A DNA stretch of 64,000 nucleotides, taken from contig OZ360226.1 of NCBI GenBank assembly GCA_977017645.1, positions 124,310,001-124,374,000 of the forward strand, given 5' to 3'. Below are positions 17,332-54,900 of the stretch, piece after piece. This DNA comes from Torpedo marmorata (taxonomy: Eukaryota). The translations under genes and the position numbers were made by a program. How positions within the stretch are numbered: the stretch's first letter is position 1; each line of letters begins with the position of its first letter. The notes under the pieces were generated by a model, which made no database searches, was not told the DNA's origin, and saw only the letters and a list, made by a program, of their open reading frames with translations.

Positions 17332-17622
17332 GGATCTCTGGGTATTGGGTCTACTGGCATACTTGACCTCCATAATAGAAGTAGTTTATAGATTGGCATT
17401 CCCCTAACTTTATTTTTCTCTTTCTTTTTCTTTCTTCTTTTTCTATTTTTATTTTATATTTTTATTAGATTAGTGGGGTTGGGAGGGTTGGGGAGTGGAG
17501 GGAGGGAGGGGGGGGTGAAAATGTATCACAAATAATTTCATAACTGTATATTTTACTTTATGTATTTCGTGATTTAAAAATTTTAAATAAAATATTTTTT
17601 AAAAAAAGTAGAGGCCTCACCT

Positions 17623-19713
17623 TCGTCCCCCTCCGCCAACACCTCAACGAGTTCCGCGCACGCCATAATGCCGAACTCTTCTTCCGTCGCCTCCGCCTCC
17701 GTGCTCACTTCCATGACCGTGATTCTCCACCCCCCACCCAAAACCCTTTCTCCCGCTTCAAGCCTTCTTCCTCTTCCTGGACACCTCGCCCTGGCCAGCT
17801 GCCCGCTCTGGACCTTTTTATTTCCAACTGCCGCCGAGACATCAACCGTCTCAACTTCACTATCCCCCTCTCGTATTCCAACCTCACCTCCTCAGAACGC
17901 TCTGCCCTCCACTCTCTCCGCAACAATCCCAACCTCACCATCAAACCCGCAGACAAGGGCGGTGCGATTGTGGTCTGGCGCACTGACCTCTACCTTGCCG
18001 AGGCCAGTCGACAACTCTCAGACACCTCCTCCTACCGACCCCTCCCACAGGACCCCACCACAGCACATCAAGCCACTGTCTCCAACACCATCTCCGACCT
18101 CATCACCTATGGTCACCAACCTCATTCTCCCCCAACCCCGCACTGCCCGTTTCTACCTTCTACCCAAGATACACAAACCCAACCATCCGAGCAGACCCAT
18201 TGTTTCTGCCTGCTCCTGCCCCACTGAACTAGTTTCATCTTACCTTGACTCCATCTTTTCTCCCCTGGTCCAATCCCTCCCCACCTACATCCGCGACACC
18301 TCACATGCCCTCCATCTCCTCAATGACTTCAGATTCCCTGAATCGGACCGTATCATCTTCACCATGGATGTCCAATCCCTTTATACCTCTATCCCCCACA
18401 CAGAAGGTCTGAAAGCACTTAGCTTCTTCCTGGATCAAAGACCCGACCAGTCACCCTCTACCACCACCCTCCTCCGCCTGGCAGAACTTGTCCTCACTCT
18501 CAATAACTTCTCCTTCAACTCATCCCACTTCCTCCAAATCAAAGGAGTAACCATGGGTACACGCATGGGTCCCAGCTACGCCTGCCTGTTTGTGGGCTTT
18601 GTGGAGCAATCCATGCTGCAAGCCTACACAGGCAAGACCCCTCATCTCTTCCTCTGGTATATCGACGACTACATCGGGGCTGCCTCATGCACCCGCGATG
18701 AGCTTGTCAACTTCATCCACTTCGCATCCAACTTTCACCACGATCTCAAACTCACCTGGTCCATCTCTGATAATACTCTCCCCTTCCTGGATCTCTCTGT
18801 CTCCATCTCGGGAGACAAGCTTTCCACCGACATTTACTACAAACCCTCCAACTCCCACAACTATCTGGACTACACATCCTCACACCCTGTCCCCTGCAAG
18901 GACTCCATCCCCTTCTCTCAATTTCTCCGCCTCCACCGGATCTGTTCCCAAGATGAGGTGTTCCACTCCAGATCTTCTGAAATGTCTGCCTTTTTCCACA
19001 AACGTGGCTTCCCTTCCACCACCATCAACTCAGCCCTCACCCGCATCTCCTCCATTTCCCGCTCATCTGCCCTGGCCCCCTCTGCCCCCAGACGCAACAA
19101 ACATAGAATCCCCCTCATCCTCACCTACCACCCCACCAGCCTCCGCATCCAACACATTATCCGCTGGAATTTCCGGCACTTACTACAGGATCCCACCACC
19201 AGACACATTTTTCCTTCTCCTCCCCTCTCGGCCTTCCGTAGGGACCGCTCCCTCCGTGATTCACTCGTGCACTCATCCCTCCCCACCCATCGCACCCCCG
19301 GAACCTTCCCCTGTGCCCGCAGGAAGTGCAACACCTGCGCCCACACCTCCCCCTTCACCACGGTCCAGGGCCCCAAACAGGCCTTCCAAGTGAAACTACA
19401 CTTCACTTGTACATCCAGAGAACTTATTTACTGCATCCGGTGCTCCCTTTGTGGCTTTCTATACATTGGAGAGACCGGTCGTAAATTGGGAGACCGCTTT
19501 GCTGAGCACCTCCACTCCGTCCGCAACAACAGCGACCTCCCAGTAGCCAACCATTTCAATTCCGGGTCACACTCCCACACTCACATGTCTGTCCATGGCC
19601 TCATGTACTATCCCACCCAGACTACCCGCAAATTGGAGGAACAACATCTCATATTCCGTCTCGGCACTCTCCAGCCAGATGGCATTAACATTGACTTTTC
19701 TGCTTTCCACTAA
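17623..19713 (+). pseudogene. Penelope RT plus GIY-YIG endonuclease ORF (frameshift near 18110)
   Basis: LLPKIHKP, MDVQSLYTSIP, GVTMGTRMGP, WYIDD, FLD; Cys linker CARRKCNTC; LIYCIRC..LYIGET..RFAEH; PDGIN. Confidence 0.92.
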
Positions 19714-45008: not shown

Positions 45009-45809
45009 ACCCCAGGTTGCTGTGGGAAGTGAGGGAAGAGATAGCTGAGGCAGTGGCTATGATCTTTGATTCCTCTTTGGCCACAGAGGAGGAGCCAGTG
45101 GATTGGAGAATGGCAAATGTGGTGCTCTTGTTTAAAAAAAAAGGTAATAGGGAGAATCCTGGGAATTATAGACTGGTGAGTCTAACGTCAGTGGTGTGCA
45201 AACTATTGGAGAGGATTCTTAAGGATAGGATCTATGAGCATTTGGAGAATACAGTCTACTCAGGGATAGTCAGCATGGCTTTGTGAAGGGAAGGTCGTGC
45301 CTCACAAGTCTAATTGAGTTTTTTGAGGAGGTAACAAAGGAAATTGATGATGGTAGGGAGGTAGATGTGGTCTATATGGATTTAAGGAAGGCATTTGACA
45401 AGGTCCCCCATGAGAGACTTGTTCAGAAAGTCATGAGGCATGGGATCCATGGAACCTTGGCTGTGTGGATTAAAAATTGGCTTGCATATAGAAAGCAGAG
45501 AGAGGAAGGAAAGTATTCGGCCTGGAGGTCAGTGACTAGTGGGTTTCCGCAAGGATCTGTTCTGGGACCCTTGCTCTTTGTGATCTTTATAAATGATCTC
45601 GATGAAGAGGTGGAAGGATGGGTCAGTAAGTTTGCGGATTGCGTTTTATTGCTTCTTTTTTTGAAACTGAAGAAAGACCTGCGTGGGTTGGAATAGAGCT
45701 TGGAGAAATAGGAGAGAAGAAACCACAAGAATTTATATATAAATGGAATTCAAAACTGTTGACAGGTGTTAAAGAAACACCGTTATTAAAACATTTGATT
45801 AATGCTTGG

Positions 45810-46491
45810 TATAAGTAACGGTGACTTCGCTCCACCAATAGTCACCTGGAGGCTAAGTGTGGTCCTTGCTTTTGACGCGTTTTATTTAATTTACTAACAA
45901 AGTCCAATATGTTCAAAAACCTTTATTTTCACACATGACTTGCAGTAATCTTCAATGACTTTAATATAAACAGTTCTTGTAAACGGTGTATGATGAGTTC
46001 CTTTAAATTATTCTTTAAACAATTCCAAAACGATATGAAACACTGTAGATGATGTTAAAATTATAGAAACATTATAAAACGGTCAATAAAGATGTGGAGA
46101 CCAGACTCACCCCCCATACATCTCTATCCTTTCTTTGTTCTCTCTCTCCAATGGTTCTGCGCATGCTCCAACGCGCATACTACAATTCCCAGCCTCCCAC
46201 GCGCACTATGACGTCACTCTATACTGCGCATGCGCCCGTCGGCACTCCCGCGCATGCGCATATCAAAGAACGGGCCGACGACGGCCCACAGAACAACGCA
46301 AGCGCTCCAAGGCCCGACGTGGCCTCGGAGCGCGCTGAGGACGGCCCAGTGAACAACGCGAGCGCTCAATGGCCCGACGTGGCCCAGGAGCGCTCCGAGG
46401 ACGGCCCACCGAACCACGCGAGCGCTCCAAGGCCCGACGAGACATCGGAGCGCCGCAACAACGGTAAGTTAACGAGCCTACGGCTCTTACA
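45810..46491 (-). repeat. 3' LTR of BEL element
   Basis: Same sequence as 51270-51951 by line-by-line inspection (offset 5460). Confidence 0.95.
46276..46455. repeat. Three ~60-bp GC-rich tandem units in the BEL LTR (also 51736-51915)
   Basis: GACGGCCCA..GAAC.ACGC.AGCGCTC.A.GGCCCGACG repeated three times. Confidence 0.85.
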
Positions 46492-46689
46492 CCGGCCCCT
46501 AATTATTATAATTAGACGTAATGTCTTGAATAATAATTACACTATAAATAATAATAACCATAACATTCAAAACAATACAAATCTTCTTTCTTCCTTCTTC
46601 ATAAATCTAGAGTTTACCATAACTCTGATTCAACAAAAGTCTGTAACCTGTGAAATGTACAACAACAAATAAAGTCAGTTTACATTTAT

Positions 46690-46870
46690 CAAAGTTCCTC
46701 TGTCTCCAACAAAAGGCAGACCTGGTTAATAGGTCTGTTTAGAAAACCAGTCTTAGCTTTAATTCGCACTTGACGCACAAGTCCTCTTTGTCTTGAAAAG
46801 TCTCAATAATCTTTTCCAAGTAACCAGGAATTTCTTGAAGTTGAACCATCCATAACAATCACAATGTCTC
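46690..46870 (-). pseudogene. Frameshifted remnant of the BEL pol C-terminus (DUF5641-like)
   Basis: Reads DIVIVMDGSTSRNSWLLGK/IIETFQDK/GLVRQVRIKAKTGFLNRPINQVCLLLE across frameshifts. Confidence 0.75.
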
Positions 46871-46908: not shown

Positions 46909-49900
46909 TCAACTAGTAAACTTCAAATCCTCCTCAGACAAAATAGATACAGTTTTCCTTTTGAATTTAACATGAGGCACTTCTTCAGCATGTCGTTTCA
47001 CTTTATTCCTTTCTTCAGTATTCCACTTCTTATGTGAAGAATTTAAACTCTTAGAATTAGAATTTGAATATTCATTTGATTCTTTCGATTTTAAACAGGT
47101 CTGTTTAACCACTCTGGTTTCTATGGCTCTTTCCTGCAATTCTAAATCCAATTTTGCAACTTTCAACTCAGTCTCAGCTCCTTCCGAGAAATTAATAATT
47201 TGATTTGAAGTCAAAATATCATATGGTACATTGATATTTCCATTGTCAATCCTGTCGCGACAAACTTGAAATTTTTTAATTTCTTCGTCTTGCTTGTTAC
47301 ATTTCTGCAATGCAATTTCACATTCTTTCTGCATTGTTAATTGTTGAACATTCAATTTACATTCTTGATTGGTTTTTAAAGTCAACTGTTTTGTGTTATT
47401 AACCAATAACTTGTTCTCTTTCAAAACATTAATTTCTTCCTCCAACCTTTTACATTTTGATAATGCTGAATCTCTTTCCTCAATAACTGTATTCATTTCT
47501 TCAGCAGTTATTCTTTTCTTCCGCTTTCTGACTTTGCGAGTTTTACTTACAATTAAATCTTTCTGTTTACTGTTTTCTTGCTTATTTAATATTTCCAATT
47601 CTCCTTTCAACATTTTGTTCTCTGGATTCAATTGCATTGAATTATCATTCACATTATTCTTTATTCCATCAGCACAATTTTCTGTGTTTTCCAGTTTTAC
47701 ATCACATTGTAATATTTCTTCATTAGCTTTGCCTGTTGTAATCTCTGAACTACAAAATCTACATTCAGATTTGTTTTCAGTCACTTGTTTTATTCCTGTA
47801 TCTGATTCAATTACACATGAATGATCAATAGTATTATTTGCAACATCTTTTAATACTTCACTTTCATCCTCTAACACTTCACTTTCATCCATTTCTGACG
47901 AAATTAATTCCTTCAATGTTGTTTTAAATACCATTGATTTATTTTCACATTGATCTGTTTTCTTTTCTTCATAAGTGATTTTCTTATTCACGGTTTTTTG
48001 CTCTTCTTTTAACTCTTCAAATTTCTCAACTGAAATTTTATTAACATTTATCGCTACCTGTTCCTGAGCAATATCATTATTTCTTTCCATTGGTCCATTG
48101 ATTGCCCAACCAAGTATGGTTCTAATAGCGTAAGGTCCATTCCTTTTACTCTCTATTACTTCTTTTGGTACCAAAACCTTTGGCACATCTGAACCAATCA
48201 GCATTTCTATTTCAGAATTAATTTCAGGTAAATAAACCTTCCACAGATAAGCTAAATGATGGATATCACTTTGATGAGGAATATTTCCTTCGTTCACAGG
48301 CATAGTCTTCTGAGTATATACACTTGGAAGATCACAAAATTTTTTGTCATCCAATCCAGCAACCTCTAAGCCTGAAACAATGTTAGTTTCAACAACCTTT
48401 TCTTGTCCCATGGTTTTTAACATAATTCTTGATTTTCTTCCTTGAATATTAAGTTTATTCATTAGTCCTTCCGTGCAAAAAGATGCAGTGCTACCTGGGT
48501 CTAGAAATGCATATGTTTTTACTATTGCATCCCCTTTCTTGGCCTTAACTTGTACAGGCACTATTGAAAGTTTGCAGTTATTCACCCCGGCCCCAGTAAG
48601 ACCACTTGTCTGAACCGAGGTTATAACATTATTTTCTTTTGTTTCCTTTGTTTCTGTTTGCTCCTTTTCCAATTCCTTGTTTCTGTTACGGACATGCAAA
48701 ATTCTAGGATGTTTAAAATTGCATATGTCACAATTAATTTGCTTCTCGCAGTTTTTACTGATGTGCCCTTTACACAAACAGCTAAAACATATTCCATTTT
48801 CCTTTAAGAAAGCGATCTTTTCCTTATGTTCCTTCTTTTCCAATTGTAAACACATTTCCAAAGCATGTCCACCTTTACAGAACAAACAACTCTTTTCATT
48901 AGGCAAACTTTCCTTTTCCTTATTTATTTTGTCCTTTTCTTTACTTATAACTTGCACATTAGTAGCAAAAGTACTCCTTTTCACTTTCGGACTAGACTGT
49001 GAATTAGACTTCCTTACATCTTTGCTCATTGAATTATCTCTGGTATTTCCATATAGTGGATCTGTTTCAACATACACTTGTCGTTCAAGAAAATTTACCA
49101 AATCCTTTAAAGTAATTCTTCGACCATAATTTACTTGTAAATCACAAGCCAAATTTCTCCATCTATCCCATACCTTGTAAGGTAATTTTTCTAAAATGAT
49201 TCGCATATTACTATGCACATCAAGCTCACGAATACCATCGATTTCTTCCATAGCATTACAACATCCTCTTAAAAACAAAGTATATTCTTGCAAAGCCTTT
49301 ACATCATTTTGTTTTATTGATGTCCATTTAAGAGCTTTATCCATATAAGCTAAAGCAATTCGATGTTTGTTGCCAAAATATTGTTCCAATAAAGCCTTAG
49401 CTTTGTCTAATCCTCTTCCTGAAGACATTTGGTTACAACCTTTTACCAGTTCTTTTGGATGTCCCTTTGTGAACATTTCCAAATAATAAAGACATTCATC
49501 ACGATCTTGGCATTTATCTTCAATATTGCGTTTGAAAGATCTCATAAACGATTGATATTGAAGTGGATCACCATCAAAAGTTTGTATCTCTTTCTTGGGT
49601 AAAGAAGAGAGAGACTGTAATTGAAACAATGATGCAGCAATTTCATTTTGTCTTTCCTTGGATAACAATACATTGCTCTGCTCACTGTTTCTTGTTGCAT
49701 GCAATGTATCTGGAAACCTTACTGGTGTAGTTTCTTCCATATTTCTGATGCTTGACTCACATAACAAAGAAGCTACTTCGTTCGACCGAACCCAATCTGC
49801 AGCTTTGCTTTCAGATGTTACCATTGGTACATGTGACTCGATACCAAAATGCTCTTGAAAGGTTTGACCTTGTATATGTAAGTTTTGTATCCTTGGTTCT

Positions 49901-50865
49901 AAAATATCTATCCTTTTGGTTGGTTTCTTTTCCTGTGACTCCTTTTTTAAATATGACCTTTTATTATCAGACAATTTAGATGATTTACTGCTAGCACCAG
50001 ATACCATTGAGCCTTCTATTGCTTTCTTTTCTGCCTTGGCAATAGCAATGTTTGCTTCCAGCTCCTGCTGTTCTTTTCTCTTCCTTAGCTGCTCCTTCTC
50101 TTGTCTTAGCTGCTCCTTTAGCTGTTTCTCATTTTGTCTTAGCTGCTCCTCCTCTTGTCTTAGCTGCTCCTTTAGCTGCTCCTTTAGCTGCTCCTCCTTT
50201 TGTCTTAGCTGCTCCTTTACCTGCTCCTCCTTTTGTCTTAGCTGCTCCTTTAGCTGCTCCTCCTTTTGTCTTAGCTGCTCCTCCTCTTCTTCCAAAATAT
50301 ATTTATCCTTAAGCGTTTTTTGTTGTGCAAGAAGAGCGGCCAATTTAACATCAATCTTTGTACGTGACGACGCAGAACTTGAAGTACGAGAAACTCTGGA
50401 GCTTGAACCAGAACTTCTTTTGCTTCTCCTGCTTGCAGCATTTGAGACACTGTCACTTGCTTGTATTTCGTCCTGCAGTTCATATGTTGTCTTCATACTT
50501 ACCTCTTTATCCAATTCGAATTGTATATCCTTTGCATCTTCAACCAATTCAATTTCTTCCTCATTTGGTGACACAATTTCAGCCATTTCCAAGTTATCTT
50601 CTTGTTCCACTAATGAAGCTGCCTCTTCATCCTTTGCCAGCTTCAATCTTTCGATAAGAACCTTTTTATTTCCACTTATGTCCTTTTTCAGTCGCTTCAA
50701 TTCTTCTTTAATATCTGAAACCTTCATGTCTTCAATACGTTGGTCCTCAACAGCAACATCAGCGGTTGCTGCGTCAGCTGCTGATAAATCAGTAGCTGCT
50801 GTATCAGTGGCTGCTGCGGCCATTTTACTCGTCTTGTTCCTCTTTCCTTCAAGCATACACAACAC
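46909..50865 (-). CDS. Chimeric BEL polyprotein: SAP domain, coiled coil, BEL Gag (three Cys/His knuckles), aspartic protease, MIPOL1-like coiled coil; no RT, RNase H or integrase
   Basis: 1318 codons uninterrupted (likely ATG at 50823, MAAAA). FDGDPLQYQSF, CLFCKGGHALEMC, CFSCLCKGHISKNC, CDICNFKHPRILH, FLDPGSTASF, LGWAINGP; no YxDD or DDE motifs. Confidence 0.88.
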   Translation of the reverse strand: MLCMLEGKRNKTSKMAAAATDTAATDLSAADAATADVAVEDQRIEDMKVSDIKEELKRLKKDISGNKKVLIERLKLAKDEEAASLVEQEDNLEMAEIVSPNEEEIELVEDAKDIQFELDKEVSMKTTYELQDEIQASDSVSNAASRRSKRSSGSSSRVSRTSSSASSRTKIDVKLAALLAQQKTLKDKYILEEEEEQLRQKEEQLKEQLRQKEEQVKEQLRQKEEQLKEQLKEQLRQEEEQLRQNEKQLKEQLRQEKEQLRKRKEQQELEANIAIAKAEKKAIEGSMVSGASSKSSKLSDNKRSYLKKESQEKKPTKRIDILEPRIQNLHIQGQTFQEHFGIESHVPMVTSESKAADWVRSNEVASLLCESSIRNMEETTPVRFPDTLHATRNSEQSNVLLSKERQNEIAASLFQLQSLSSLPKKEIQTFDGDPLQYQSFMRSFKRNIEDKCQDRDECLYYLEMFTKGHPKELVKGCNQMSSGRGLDKAKALLEQYFGNKHRIALAYMDKALKWTSIKQNDVKALQEYTLFLRGCCNAMEEIDGIRELDVHSNMRIILEKLPYKVWDRWRNLACDLQVNYGRRITLKDLVNFLERQVYVETDPLYGNTRDNSMSKDVRKSNSQSSPKVKRSTFATNVQVISKEKDKINKEKESLPNEKSCLFCKGGHALEMCLQLEKKEHKEKIAFLKENGICFSCLCKGHISKNCEKQINCDICNFKHPRILHVRNRNKELEKEQTETKETKENNVITSVQTSGLTGAGVNNCKLSIVPVQVKAKKGDAIVKTYAFLDPGSTASFCTEGLMNKLNIQGRKSRIMLKTMGQEKVVETNIVSGLEVAGLDDKKFCDLPSVYTQKTMPVNEGNIPHQSDIHHLAYLWKVYLPEINSEIEMLIGSDVPKVLVPKEVIESKRNGPYAIRTILGWAINGPMERNNDIAQEQVAINVNKISVEKFEELKEEQKTVNKKITYEEKKTDQCENKSMVFKTTLKELISSEMDESEVLEDESEVLKDVANNTIDHSCVIESDTGIKQVTENKSECRFCSSEITTGKANEEILQCDVKLENTENCADGIKNNVNDNSMQLNPENKMLKGELEILNKQENSKQKDLIVSKTRKVRKRKKRITAEEMNTVIEERDSALSKCKRLEEEINVLKENKLLVNNTKQLTLKTNQECKLNVQQLTMQKECEIALQKCNKQDEEIKKFQVCRDRIDNGNINVPYDILTSNQIINFSEGAETELKVAKLDLELQERAIETRVVKQTCLKSKESNEYSNSNSKSLNSSHKKWNTEERNKVKRHAEEVPHVKFKRKTVSILSEEDLKFTS
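50080..50290 (-). repeat. In-frame tandem repeat encoding (EEQL[R/K]..)n coiled coil
   Basis: Repeated TTAGCTGCTCCT units in multiples of 3 bp. Confidence 0.85.
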
Positions 50866-51269
50866 TAGTCAAACAACAGTCCCCAATGGACCAGCGGCAG
50901 CAATTCCAATCTGTGTTCTTACTTGCTAAAGATACACAGAAGGAGTCCACAGACTTATGCCTACCACTTCAAATGACTGTAATGTGCTGCAATCCACAAA
51001 CGAGTTTCAACCACAACATCCGTCACTAATATCACTGATTTTCCAAAAATAGTTTCTCCAACGTATTTATATGACACTTTATTATAAGATTTGAAGCTTT
51101 AAATCCCTCTCTGGCTGTTATTCATGGCAGATGGAAGTGGATTACAAACTGCCCCCAACTCGAGGCAACTCCAAAATGGCCACCAATTTATATCAGTCCA
51201 AAGCACAGAGAGTTTTTTCTATCTTCTTTCTTTCAAACTTCTGTTCCAAACAGCCAGCCCTTTATTGAC

Positions 51270-51951
51270 TATAAGTAACGGTGACTTCGCTCCACCAATA
51301 GTCACCTGGAGGCTAAGTGTGGTCCTTGCTTTTGACGCGTTTTATTTAATTTACTAACAAAGTCCAATATGTTCAAAAACCTTTATTTTCACACATGACT
51401 TGCAGTAATCTTCAATGACTTTAATATAAACAGTTCTTGTAAACGGTGTATGATGAGTTCCTTTAAATTATTCTTTAAACAATTCCAAAACGATATGAAA
51501 CACTGTAGATGATGTTAAAATTATAGAAACATTATAAAACGGTCAATAAAGATGTGGAGACCAGACTCACCCCCCATACATCTCTATCCTTTCTTTGTTC
51601 TCTCTCTCCAATGGTTCTGCGCATGCTCCAACGCGCATACTACAATTCCCAGCCTCCCACGCGCACTATGACGTCACTCTATACTGCGCATGCGCCCGTC
51701 GGCACTCCCGCGCATGCGCATATCAAAGAACGGGCCGACGACGGCCCACAGAACAACGCAAGCGCTCCAAGGCCCGACGTGGCCTCGGAGCGCGCTGAGG
51801 ACGGCCCAGTGAACAACGCGAGCGCTCAATGGCCCGACGTGGCCCAGGAGCGCTCCGAGGACGGCCCACCGAACCACGCGAGCGCTCCAAGGCCCGACGA
51901 GACATCGGAGCGCCGCAACAACGGTAAGTTAACGAGCCTACGGCTCTTACA
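51270..51951 (-). repeat. 5' LTR of BEL element
   Basis: Minus strand TGTAAG...CTTATA, followed by GTCAATAAAGG. Confidence 0.95.
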
Positions 51952-54900
51952 CTTGGAATAAGGTTAATGACGATATAGGATTAAAAGGAAATATATCACC
52001 TAAAATGCCATTGATACAGAACAATCTGATACCATTTACAAAAGATAACCCTTTTTTAAATACATGGTCATTAAAAGGAATAAAGAAAATAGAAGATTGT
52101 TATGAAGGAAATCAAATGATGTCATTCATACAATTACAGAATAAATACGGAATACCTAGAAATATATTTTTTTGCTATCTTCAACTAACAGCTTATTTAA
52201 GAGGAAAATTAGGTCCAGGCATGTTGTTACAAGAGTGTAGTGAAGTAGAAACTATTATTAGGAAAGGAAATACTAAGAAATTTACTTCTATAGTATATTC
52301 TTTGTTACAGAAGGGAGCTCAAAAACGAGGACTTCATAAGTCCAGACAAAGATGGGAACAAGATCTTAATATTATAATTGATGAAAAAAGATGGTCGGAT
52401 CTATGCTTAGATAGTATGACTAATACTGTTAATGTAAGATATAGACTGGTACAATACAACTTCTTACACCAAATATACCCCACACCACAAAAACTGAACA
52501 AGATGAATTCTACAATACCAAATAGATGTTTTAGATGTGGAGAAGAAGAAGGAACATTCTTACATTCAACGTGGTCATGTTCAAAAGTTAAAGATTTTTG
52601 GGCAGAGTTAGGAAACCGGTTAAAACTAGTTACAGGTGTTACATTTCCTCAAAACCCTGACTTGTTCTTATTGGGGAATGTAGAGGGAGCTAGACCAAAA
52701 TTGAAATTATCCATATGGCAATTAAAATTCGTAAAAATTGCACTAGCAGTAGCTAGGAAATGTATAGCAGTGACCTGGAAATCGGACACAAATCTGAGTA
52801 TGAGTAGATGGAATTCAGAGATGCAGAGTTGCATCCCATTGGAAAAAATAACATACAATATGAGGAATAAGTATGGACTCTTTTTACAAATTTGGCGTCC
52901 ATTTATCCAATTATCAGGAATGAATATTTAAATATGTTGCCCTGCATCCCAGACCCCGCTGACTCTCTTAAGTTTAAATTTGAAGAATGAACATTGTTGA
53001 ATTTCTTGCATCGAGCCATGGATATGTACAGATATATTTTCAATTGTTCTTTTCCCTTCTCTTTTCTTTTTTAGTTCTAGTATGGGGAGGGGATAAGGGA
53101 TGGGAAGGGTGGAGGGTGGGTTGTTTTAGTAAGGGTGGTTTAGATGGGGTTAGATTCATGGTAATACGAAATTCCTATGTATCGAATTTAACTGATGTTT
53201 AATGTATATTTTACATTATTTTGTATTATTGTGAAAAAGTTGAAAATCTTAAAATAAAATATTTTTAAAAATAAGTAAGTTTGCGGATGACACAAAGGTT
53301 GGAGGAGTTGTGGATGGTGCTGAAGGTTGTCGTAGTTTACAAAAGGATATAGACAGGATGCAGGGTTGGGCGGAAAAGTGGCAGATGGGATCAATCTGGA
53401 TAAGTGTGAGGTGATGCATTTTGAAAGGACAAACCAGAAGGCTGAGTACAGGGATAATGGTTGGTTACTTAGGAGTGTGGATGAACAGAGGGACGTTGGA
53501 GTACAAATCCATACATCCCTCAACGTCACAGCGCAGATTGATAGGATAGTTAAGAAGGGATTGAGTTCAGGAGTCGAGAGGTCATGTTGCAACTCTACAA
53601 ATCTCTGGTGAGACCACACTTGGAGTATTGTGTTCAGTTCTGGTCACCTCATTATAGGAAGGATGTGGAGGCTATGGAGAGGGTACAGAGGAGATTTACC
53701 AGGATGTTGCCTGGATTGGAGAATGTGTCTTATGAAGCAAGGTTAGCAGAGCTGGGACTTTTCTCTTTGGAGCGTAGAAGGATGAGAGGAGACTCAATAG
53801 AGGTCTACAAGATTATAAGAGGAATAGATAGGATGGACAGCCAGCGCCTTTTTCCCAGGGCAGAAATAGAAAACACCAGAGGTCATATGTACAAAGCGAA
53901 GGGAGGGAAGTTTAGGGGAGACATCAAGGGTAAGTTTTTTTGTTTTTTTTTTATATACAGAGAGTTGTGGGTGCCTTGAATGCCTTGCCATGGATAGTGA
54001 TGGAGGTTGAAATATTAGGGGCATTTAAGAGGCTCTTCTTAGACAGGCACATGGATGGAAGAAAAATAGAGGGTTACAGGGTAGGGAGGGTTGAGTATTT
54101 TTTTAAGGAATATATGGGTCGGTACAACATCAAGGGCCAAAGTGTCTATACTGTGCTGTAGTGTTCTATCTAAAAACCATTAAAACATATTTTATGATTT
54201 CAGACCGTGGCCTCCCCTTAAATGTGCTGTGGTCCCCAGGGAGGGCTGTACTGCCCCCGTTGAGAATGGCTGCTTTATATTACAGGCCAAAATGTAATTG
54301 TTGTGTGACCTCCTGGTTTGCTTTGGGGATTTTGTCCATTGGGCCTGCAGGATATTCCAACAGAATTTTTGGCAACTGAGAGTAAGAGAATTTCACTGAA
54401 GCCTGAGAAAAGACCCTGAAACTGTCCAAGGGCAATCTATCTTGAGGTGATATTTGGTTCATTGATGTATCACTCTCTGGGTGCAAAGACTTGATAAAAT
54501 TTGTTTTTATTTCCTTCACTTGAACCCATGTGATGTAGATTGGTTATAGTTATCAAAAAGATGGTTCTGTTGTTTGTCAGACTGTAATAGACACTACTGA
54601 AAAGCCATAGCAAACATTGGTCACCCACATTGATTTCTAGAAAGTCTTTGAGGATGTTTAATATCAGAATTTATTCTTCTGCACAGAATTTCACAAAGTA
54701 ACAGTCAGTATTTTTGACATTTTTAAAAGTTTGATCAATATTGTTTGGCCATTTGTTATCTTTTTACAAATGTTTATTGACATTCATGTTATTGTTCCCA
54801 GTGATCTTTGCTCTAAATTAGAACTAATTTCAAACTGTAGAGTATCCAGAACTAGCTCCTGTACTGCATTGCAAGACTTCATTTATTCATTGCAATTGTC

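Follow-up and report, generated by a model that had tools for sequence, protein, structure and literature searches.

The stretch of DNA analysed here, which we call the window, comprises 64,000 nucleotides of the Torpedo marmorata genome (GenBank assembly GCA_977017645.1, contig OZ360226.1, positions 124,310,001 to 124,374,000). On its minus strand, as are all features of the element given below, lies a 6.14-kb BEL/Pao retrotransposon flanked by identical 682-nt long terminal repeats (LTRs), the 5' LTR at 51270–51951 and the 3' LTR, preceded by a purine-rich tract, at 45810–46491. Identical 5-nt target-site duplications adjoin its ends (upstream copy, 51952–51956; downstream copy, 45805–45809), and matching 5-mers also flank seven of eight young sister copies, the eighth not being resolved. 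The element was inserted into a LINE fragment (51933–52931 and ~45640–45809); both flanks match one LINE copy and the flanking open reading frame (ORF) matches zf-RVT. Both LTRs finish with TA rather than CA, and the 5' LTR is not directly followed (51269–51240) by the TGG with which a tRNA primer-binding site canonically begins; the intact partner copies L106–L113 described below are alike in this. The element is a fresh non-autonomous BEL/Pao insertion.

A single ORF (50868–46909) runs uninterrupted from stop to stop over 1319 codons. It starts with a BEL/Pao Gag (SAP domain, repetitive coil and zinc knuckles) and an aspartic protease with its motif (47998–50868), and the reverse transcriptase (RT), RNase H and integrase motifs that are present in the intact partner L106 were not found in the window ORF. 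In place of pol it continues in frame through three segments that derive from spliced host transcripts: BRCA1 (47997–47553), MIPOL1 (47560–47110) and Elongin A (ELOA; 47109–46897). The stop codon (46911–46909) falls inside the ELOA segment, ahead of an Elongin_A domain that older copies keep, and it is followed by an untranslated remnant of the pol 3' end (46689–46870). An earlier, sequence-only reading of this stretch had already described a long open BEL ORF devoid of RT, RNase H and integrase motifs, and both observations hold. It had placed the end of BEL similarity at ~48010, correctly after the protease, though homology to the partner stops at 47998.

That reading described the cargo as a MIPOL1-like segment. 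In the protein search MIPOL1 is indeed the top named match (sawfish, E=9e-29), and of the 120 matches listed out of 190, those that carry a name are all MIPOL1 apart from a 'hypothetical' record and a mislabelled one; the best matches come from rays. Yet only ~47560–47110 is MIPOL1, and the LNPENKML stretch, on which the identification had leaned, aligns without gaps to BRCA1. The capture of MIPOL1 alone is thus ruled out by the three donors. The BRCA1 part (48009–47570) shows 53% amino-acid identity to the ray BRCA1 protein P0121 (E=3e-39), and in older copies the flanking part matches BRCA1 of a ray at 77% (E=3e-61). Two BRCA1 exons are retained in the window copy (47553–47997) and four in older copies. 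A Pfam search gave no match in MIPOL1 nor in the window cargo, and it detected Elongin_A in the old copy L124 (E=3e-16). As a side observation, residues 1–~185 of P0121 are without a RING domain and read like a retroelement Gag, so that one of the exons in this gene model may come from a transposon.

The host genes were located at G000:C40 (MIPOL1), G000:C61 (BRCA1) and G000:C41 (ELOA); a second ELOA-like locus on C25 matches only at 74–77%, and the uncaptured MIPOL1 C-terminus and the BRCA1 continuation have one genome match each. Host exon boundaries were mapped and are GT-AG. In old copies four exons of BRCA1, six of MIPOL1 and five of ELOA are linked without introns, the BRCA1 and ELOA exons in normal order and mostly at 89–98% identity to the host, and since exon junctions are crossed without introns it was spliced host RNA that was captured. 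In the oldest arrangement the protease is followed by the RT start, BRCA1, MIPOL1, ELOA and the pol tail. Individual old copies have these joints within a common frame, while most old frames are now broken. Several cassette joints have 2–8 nt common to both sides, including 8 nt at the BRCA1/MIPOL1 joint (47560–47553). Intronless exons between split element halves, the lack of poly(A) and microhomology at the joints are the marks of an LTR-mediated retrocopy of the Bs1 type. At the joint between MIPOL1 exon D and ELOA (for example in L119, L122 and L123) we also observed 11 nt that equal the first 11 nt of the old family LTR; the match is exact in 17 of 23 old copies and deleted in the window lineage. 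This suggests that the step at that joint happened at an LTR end, either by integration into cDNA or by a jump from the LTR end.

The MIPOL1 exons are not in their genomic order. A genome search with sawfish MIPOL1 showed that older copies run through residues ~342–469 and then directly through 210–300, and a second alignment placed the upstream MIPOL1 piece downstream of the main piece in the window cargo. The host exons, with GT-AG boundaries, measure 136 (B), 106 (C), 130 (D), 34 (E), 171 (F), 108 (G) and 95 nt (H). Old copies have the order F (from nt ~45)-G-H-B-C-D (18 nt), at ~94–97% identity to the host exons. The window copy has exons F (part), G and H (47255–47560) followed by the first ~72 nt of B and part of C (47110–47254), with the H|B joint at 47255/47254 and 81 nt of B/C deleted in frame. 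At this joint the donor end of exon H is attached directly to the acceptor start of exon B, whose position in the host gene is 206 kb upstream, as in a back-splice. In L042 and similar copies the 30 nt on each side are exactly those of the host, and the H|B alignment ends abut in all 115 loci with a MIPOL1 match (118 loci were examined, some being the same copy fetched twice). No sequence of exons A, E or I or of the remainder of D was found in 34 old loci, in which the end of exon A and the start of exon I score at background (31.5 and 34.5 of 240). Exons B to H total 780 nt, a multiple of three, and the H|B joint therefore keeps the frame.

A junction that is non-colinear and lies exactly at splice sites, with no exons from outside one circle, is what a retrocopy of a circular RNA would leave. 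The MIPOL1 donor was very probably a back-spliced 780-nt circle of exons B–H. The other way to reach the permuted order, a template switch on linear mRNA at a 2-nt AG, or a genomic duplication of exons B–H that was later lost, is improbable. It draws on AG microhomology at the joint, exons H and A both ending in AG, and on the fact that the remaining cassette joints are mid-exon switches. However, both ends fall exactly on splice sites, where a random backward AG-to-AG switch would land with a chance of 0.2–0.4%; all captured MIPOL1 (~587 of 780 nt) fits within one circle length; and the 320-kb host locus has a single exon B. The sequence-only reading had proposed transduction of a spliced host mRNA, and the check that it suggested, whether exon junctions are crossed without introns, came out positive at the host MIPOL1 locus, but the order is permuted and the source looks circular rather than linear. 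Published listings include an exonic circ-Mipol1 in mouse (PMC9888537) and a MIPOL1 circular RNA in human (PMC8783515), and no paper was found under the name circMIPOL1. The host MIPOL1 introns (G000:C40:64322001–64642000) themselves hold four cassette copies with MIPOL1-derived sequence, three sense and one antisense.

A search with a Pao-specific Pfam family found intact BEL copies in this genome with ORFs of ~2,050 codons. One of them, L106, carries DUF1759, RVT_1, Peptidase_A17, Integrase_H2C2, rve and DUF5641 together with the catalytic motifs, and encodes Gag and Pol as one ORF. In 11 of the 12 partner loci fetched an LTR pair was found, 94–100% identical. The window element is 94–96% identical to L106 from the 5' LTR to 47998 and again from 46870, and its LTRs are 94–97% identical to those of L106 and L110. 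About 3.2 kb of pol has been substituted by the 1.13-kb cargo. Pol was replaced rather than truncated, as had been proposed, because partner homology stops at 47998 and resumes at 46870. The domain order of L106, the direct LTRs, the 5-nt duplication and the purine tract place the window element in BEL/Pao, and it has the properties of a non-autonomous partner: no RT or integrase, LTRs and cis-acting ends common with the intact family, and recent insertions. We infer, from the shared ends and the mosaic gag, that RT and integrase would be supplied in trans by this intact family.

The mosaic structure is seen in gag and protease. These regions of the window copy are 94–100% identical to young autonomous partners and only ~70–80% identical to old cassette copies, and over 49472–49073 the window copy is 99.5–100% identical to autonomous L106, the figure for the sister copy L177 being 96–97%. 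In a tree of the 3' part of the protease (56 rows, retained out of the 87 among 148 that had coverage; midpoint root; young and mid-age rows randomly thinned, two mid-age copies mislabelled young) the autonomous copies sit in two places among the cassette copies. Forcing them into one clade was rejected (AU test, p=0.002), with a test that was picked after the tree had been seen. Judged from these alignments, Gag and protease are evidently exchanged between the passenger and the autonomous family.

The family is very numerous. Eight sampled stretches totalling 1.24 Mb (640 kb near host genes or paralogs and 600 kb chosen blind) contained 9 copies of the cassette, 2 copies with RT and 11 protease regions, and ~4% of the sampled bases match the element. 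With a genome size of 6.2 Gb this gives an estimate of ~45,000 cassettes (Poisson 95% range 21,000–86,000), from copies that are clumped, just two stretches accounting for 8 of the 9. Initial counts of candidates (35,610 and 49,863) are of the same order as this estimate and are not copy numbers. Among 72 distinct copies, of which 6 intermediate ones were left out, an intact cassette was seen in 37 of the 38 young copies and in 6 of the 28 mid-age ones; the young set is biased, because it was chosen as best matches. The ORF length in the family spreads over 1,230–1,390 codons, mostly because two repeats vary in copy number among its members, a GC-rich 60-nt repeat in the LTR U3 (51668–51924 and 46208–46464) and a 33-nt coding repeat in gag (50080–50321). 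Pairs of cassette matches ~5.2–5.4 kb apart, including L180, suggest tandem elements that share an LTR (G000:C1527; C22:29527007/29532235; C31:1194511/1199910; C75:27959328/27964496). Of 7,999 candidates that were scored, none is a long protein carrying this fusion. Four sequencing runs with four organism codes, one guessed to be RNA and three of unclear kind, cover 30, 30, 25 and 22 of 30 bins; this coverage is similar DNA in those runs and says nothing on transcription. Two further host genes, tens of thousands of copies and recombination with an autonomous partner were all absent from the sequence-only reading.

In order to see what is selected in the cargo, host exons were compared with the window copy in 13 hand-delimited ungapped blocks in one frame (342 codons). 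The two differ by 19.8% in nucleotides and 37% in amino acids. The ratio of nonsynonymous to synonymous change (dN/dS, omega) is 0.93 (coarse 95% range 0.6–1.5; p=0.72 against 1 in a likelihood-ratio test), with 0.73 for BRCA1, 1.25 for MIPOL1 and 0.79 for ELOA, none of them significant. The omega significantly below 1 that would mark a functional chimeric retrogene was thus not found. Changes in the cargo are strongly biased towards C>T, G>A and C>A, and the amino-acid shifts track this bias (Ala 24 to 9, Asn 21 to 35). As controls, private changes in decaying mid-age copies have an omega of 0.85, their 9,137 codons containing 14 stops, and pooled, non-independent old copies compared with the host have 0.84. 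The column-wise comparison of mid-age with young copies gives 1.27. Eight deep comparisons of Gag and protease, on the other hand, gave omega values of 0.36–0.50 (all p<0.001), and two shallow ones 0.45 (p=0.02) and 0.66 (p=0.24).

The frame itself behaves differently from the amino acids. No stop is seen in the cargo, against ~8 expected at the rate of dead copies (P about 3e-4); this empirical rate was used because the codon model, whose expectation of 14.6 was dropped, is twofold too high. Compared with L124, an old copy that is open from MIPOL1 onward, 10 of the 11 gaps in the window copy are multiples of three (−3, −24, +21, −108, −3, −81, −21, −174, −3 and −3), and the remaining 29 nt are L124's own deletion; compared with L119 and L125, which are themselves frameshifted, some gaps are not multiples of three. 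Past the stop codon, the 182-nt pol tail has one +1 and one −1 indel that are common to at least 30 young copies. The terminal stop has moved among subfamilies and lies 395 codons past the MIPOL1 anchor in L124, 215 in mid-age and 201 in young copies. The missing stops, the in-frame indels, the omega of ~0.93–1.25 and the frameshifts beyond the stop together indicate that an open frame is selected and not a MIPOL1 function. By this evidence, selection in replicating lineages keeps the frame open as far as a point close to the 3' end, and no selection on the amino-acid identity of the cargo is detectable. The earlier suggestion of selection on a stop-free cargo is therefore supported as regards the stops and not supported as regards a MIPOL1-like protein.

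Taken together, the window element is a BEL/Pao passenger whose pol was replaced in frame by BRCA1, permuted MIPOL1 and Elongin A and whose frame is kept open, probably because translation has to reach almost the 3' end of its RNA. By the mechanism that we propose, host RNAs would have been co-packaged and copied by template switching, RT and integrase being provided in trans by the intact partner family, and co-packaging would also let the passenger take fresh LTR, gag and protease sequence from the helper. The cargo would be a frame-keeping filler that keeps translation running nearly to the 3' end of the RNA. The distance from stop to purine tract is 403 nt in the window copy and 183–190 nt in seven partners, whereas a stop placed right after the protease would sit 1,492 nt before the tract. 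Transcripts with a long 3' untranslated region (UTR) are subject to nonsense-mediated decay. The position of the stop near the 3' end fits an escape from long-3'-UTR decay or a cis effect such as has been reported for the mouse element IAP 1-Delta-1, and such a filler would avoid the former and/or gain an advantage from translation-coupled packaging in cis. That the filler acts in either or both of these ways is somewhat favoured. The fullest version is that the back-splice junction of a circular RNA was captured in the polyprotein of a BEL/Pao passenger, which then rose to be one of the commonest repeats in a vertebrate genome, the exons being interchangeable filler, selected for being translatable and not for any protein function, in a cassette that rides successive helper backbones and supplies Gag. 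We regard this version as evenly balanced between right and wrong.

Several points weigh against the passenger interpretation. The codon model over-predicted stops in dead copies (28.8 expected, 14 seen). The range of the cargo omega still allows weak constraint (0.6), and BRCA1 alone has an omega of 0.73, which is not significant. Over 60 nt of MIPOL1 exon F (47523–47464) 3 changes are seen against an expectation of 11.6 (P=0.065 after scan correction). The cassette shrank from about 2 kb to 1.13 kb yet persists, and since an open frame alone would allow its loss, some constraint on length or RNA is left unexplained. Selection on the passenger's own Gag is unproven, because the low Gag and protease omega comes partly from helper import, and the shallow protease comparison of mid-age copies (0.66) is not significant.

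Among other roles for the cargo, the one that survives best, although it is unlikely, is that of a bulk, charged, low-complexity tail that replaces Pol on Gag-protease, so that the passenger donates Gag and corrects the Gag:Pol ratio of the helper in a kind of mutualism. The helper does have Gag and Pol in a single ORF, cassette copies outnumber RT-bearing copies 9 to 2 in the blind stretches, and young copies keep Gag and protease (130 of the 150 best matches have frames of at least 1,230 codons, by a hand count of a biased sample). But Gag-protease could also be obtained by a stop right after the protease, which leaves 360 open codons unexplained, and selection on the passenger Gag is inseparable from import by recombination. 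Slightly more doubtful is the selected cargo protein of the sequence-only reading, in which the MIPOL1 (or BRCA1 or ELOA) moiety would be released by the protease and act on the host or on the particle. The frame that is open despite 20% divergence, the sense orientation and host frame of all three pieces and the basic, little-changed patch in exon F (P=0.065) could be read in this way. Against it stand the omega values (0.93 overall, 1.25 for MIPOL1 and 1.27 column-wise between mid-age and young copies), the amino-acid shifts that follow mutation bias, and repeated large in-frame deletions that include the sole recognisable domain (Elongin_A) and 81 nt of the MIPOL1 coil. A shield, by which silencing RNAs would hit BRCA1, MIPOL1 and ELOA and the host would tolerate the element, has in its favour the involvement of three host genes, of which two serve housekeeping or repair, and a very high copy number, but it is highly improbable, the cargo having drifted 20% from the host with synonymous sites not slowed and the model needing no open frame.

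Each ingredient of the passenger reading has a precedent. The maize element Bs1, an example of LTR-mediated retroposition, contains spliced pieces of three unlinked host genes within an LTR retrotransposon (Tan et al., 2016, PMC5131818); the same source describes microhomology at the joints of LTR retrocopies, secondary retroposition of the chimera and a BEL-flanked retrocopy in mosquito. The window family resembles Bs1 in its three spliced host-gene pieces inside an LTR retrotransposon in the microhomology at their joints and in the secondary retroposition of the chimera. However, Bs1 has 1–5 copies and one piece out of frame, while the window family has ~45,000 copies with all three pieces in frame with Gag-protease, one piece in back-spliced order, and a frame selected without amino-acid constraint. 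The mouse circRFWD2 pseudogenes (33–42 copies, of a mechanism described as unknown; Dong et al., 2016, PMC4897178) share with it a non-colinear exon junction fixed in the genome, the lack of poly(A), LTR flanks and repeated copies of one junction. The window junction differs in lying within the open Gag-protease frame of an element that has inserted recently and whose partner family is identified, and its copy number is about 1,000-fold higher. IAP 1-Delta-1 is non-autonomous, is reported to act in cis, has an in-frame internal deletion and outpaces its helper in new insertions (PMC6466679). It is alike in keeping one fused open frame, but it is an endogenous retrovirus that fuses its own gag and pol, whereas the window element is a BEL/Pao that carries foreign host exons.

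In acutely transforming retroviruses Gag-host fusions replace pol and depend on a helper, and the transduced oncogenes are selected as proteins; the window cargo, with an omega near 1, differs from them in this last respect. ETn/MusD and soybean SNARE/SARE are partnerships of non-autonomous and autonomous elements with repeated sequence exchange. ETn/MusD is also named by Tan et al. (2016). Literature searches for the combination, of limited coverage, did not find it: a back-spliced junction in a translated BEL passenger ORF, three in-frame donors, copy numbers ~1,000 times those known and selection on the frame only. Papers on MIPOL1 together with retrotransposons, judged from titles and the beginnings of abstracts, included none on such a capture. 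No description of this family was found in the literature searched, to which Repbase/Dfam, subscription papers and supplements did not belong, so that it may have been named earlier.

One question left open by the circRFWD2 paper is how a circular RNA is retroposed, and the window element suggests a concrete route, namely copying inside the particle of an LTR element; it is also a record, from a cartilaginous fish, of what is very probably an ancient back-splice junction. It separates selection for an open frame from selection for amino acids, with a built-in control on either side of the stop codon. As there are thousands of datable copies in a graded series, the role of translation and of nonsense-mediated decay in the success of non-autonomous LTR elements can be tested. 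In this genome, gene annotation, read mapping and the calling of circular RNAs will also be confounded by fragments that resemble BRCA1, MIPOL1 and ELOA and number in the tens of thousands.

Two other elements were observed in the window. A second LTR element (32463–~38350, minus strand) has near-identical LTRs of ~850 nt, a 776-aa ORF with SCAN, a zinc knuckle, a protease-like region and an integrase zinc finger, and a following 424-aa ORF in which an integrase C-terminus/SH3 is fused in frame to RNase H. Its integrase stands ahead of RT/RNase H, an order that we take to be Gmr1-like, and the RT core is seemingly deleted in frame; it may be a further example of a non-autonomous element with a maintained open frame. 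On the plus strand, at 17587–19713, a 708-codon frame with an RT and a weak GIY-YIG match is Penelope-like.

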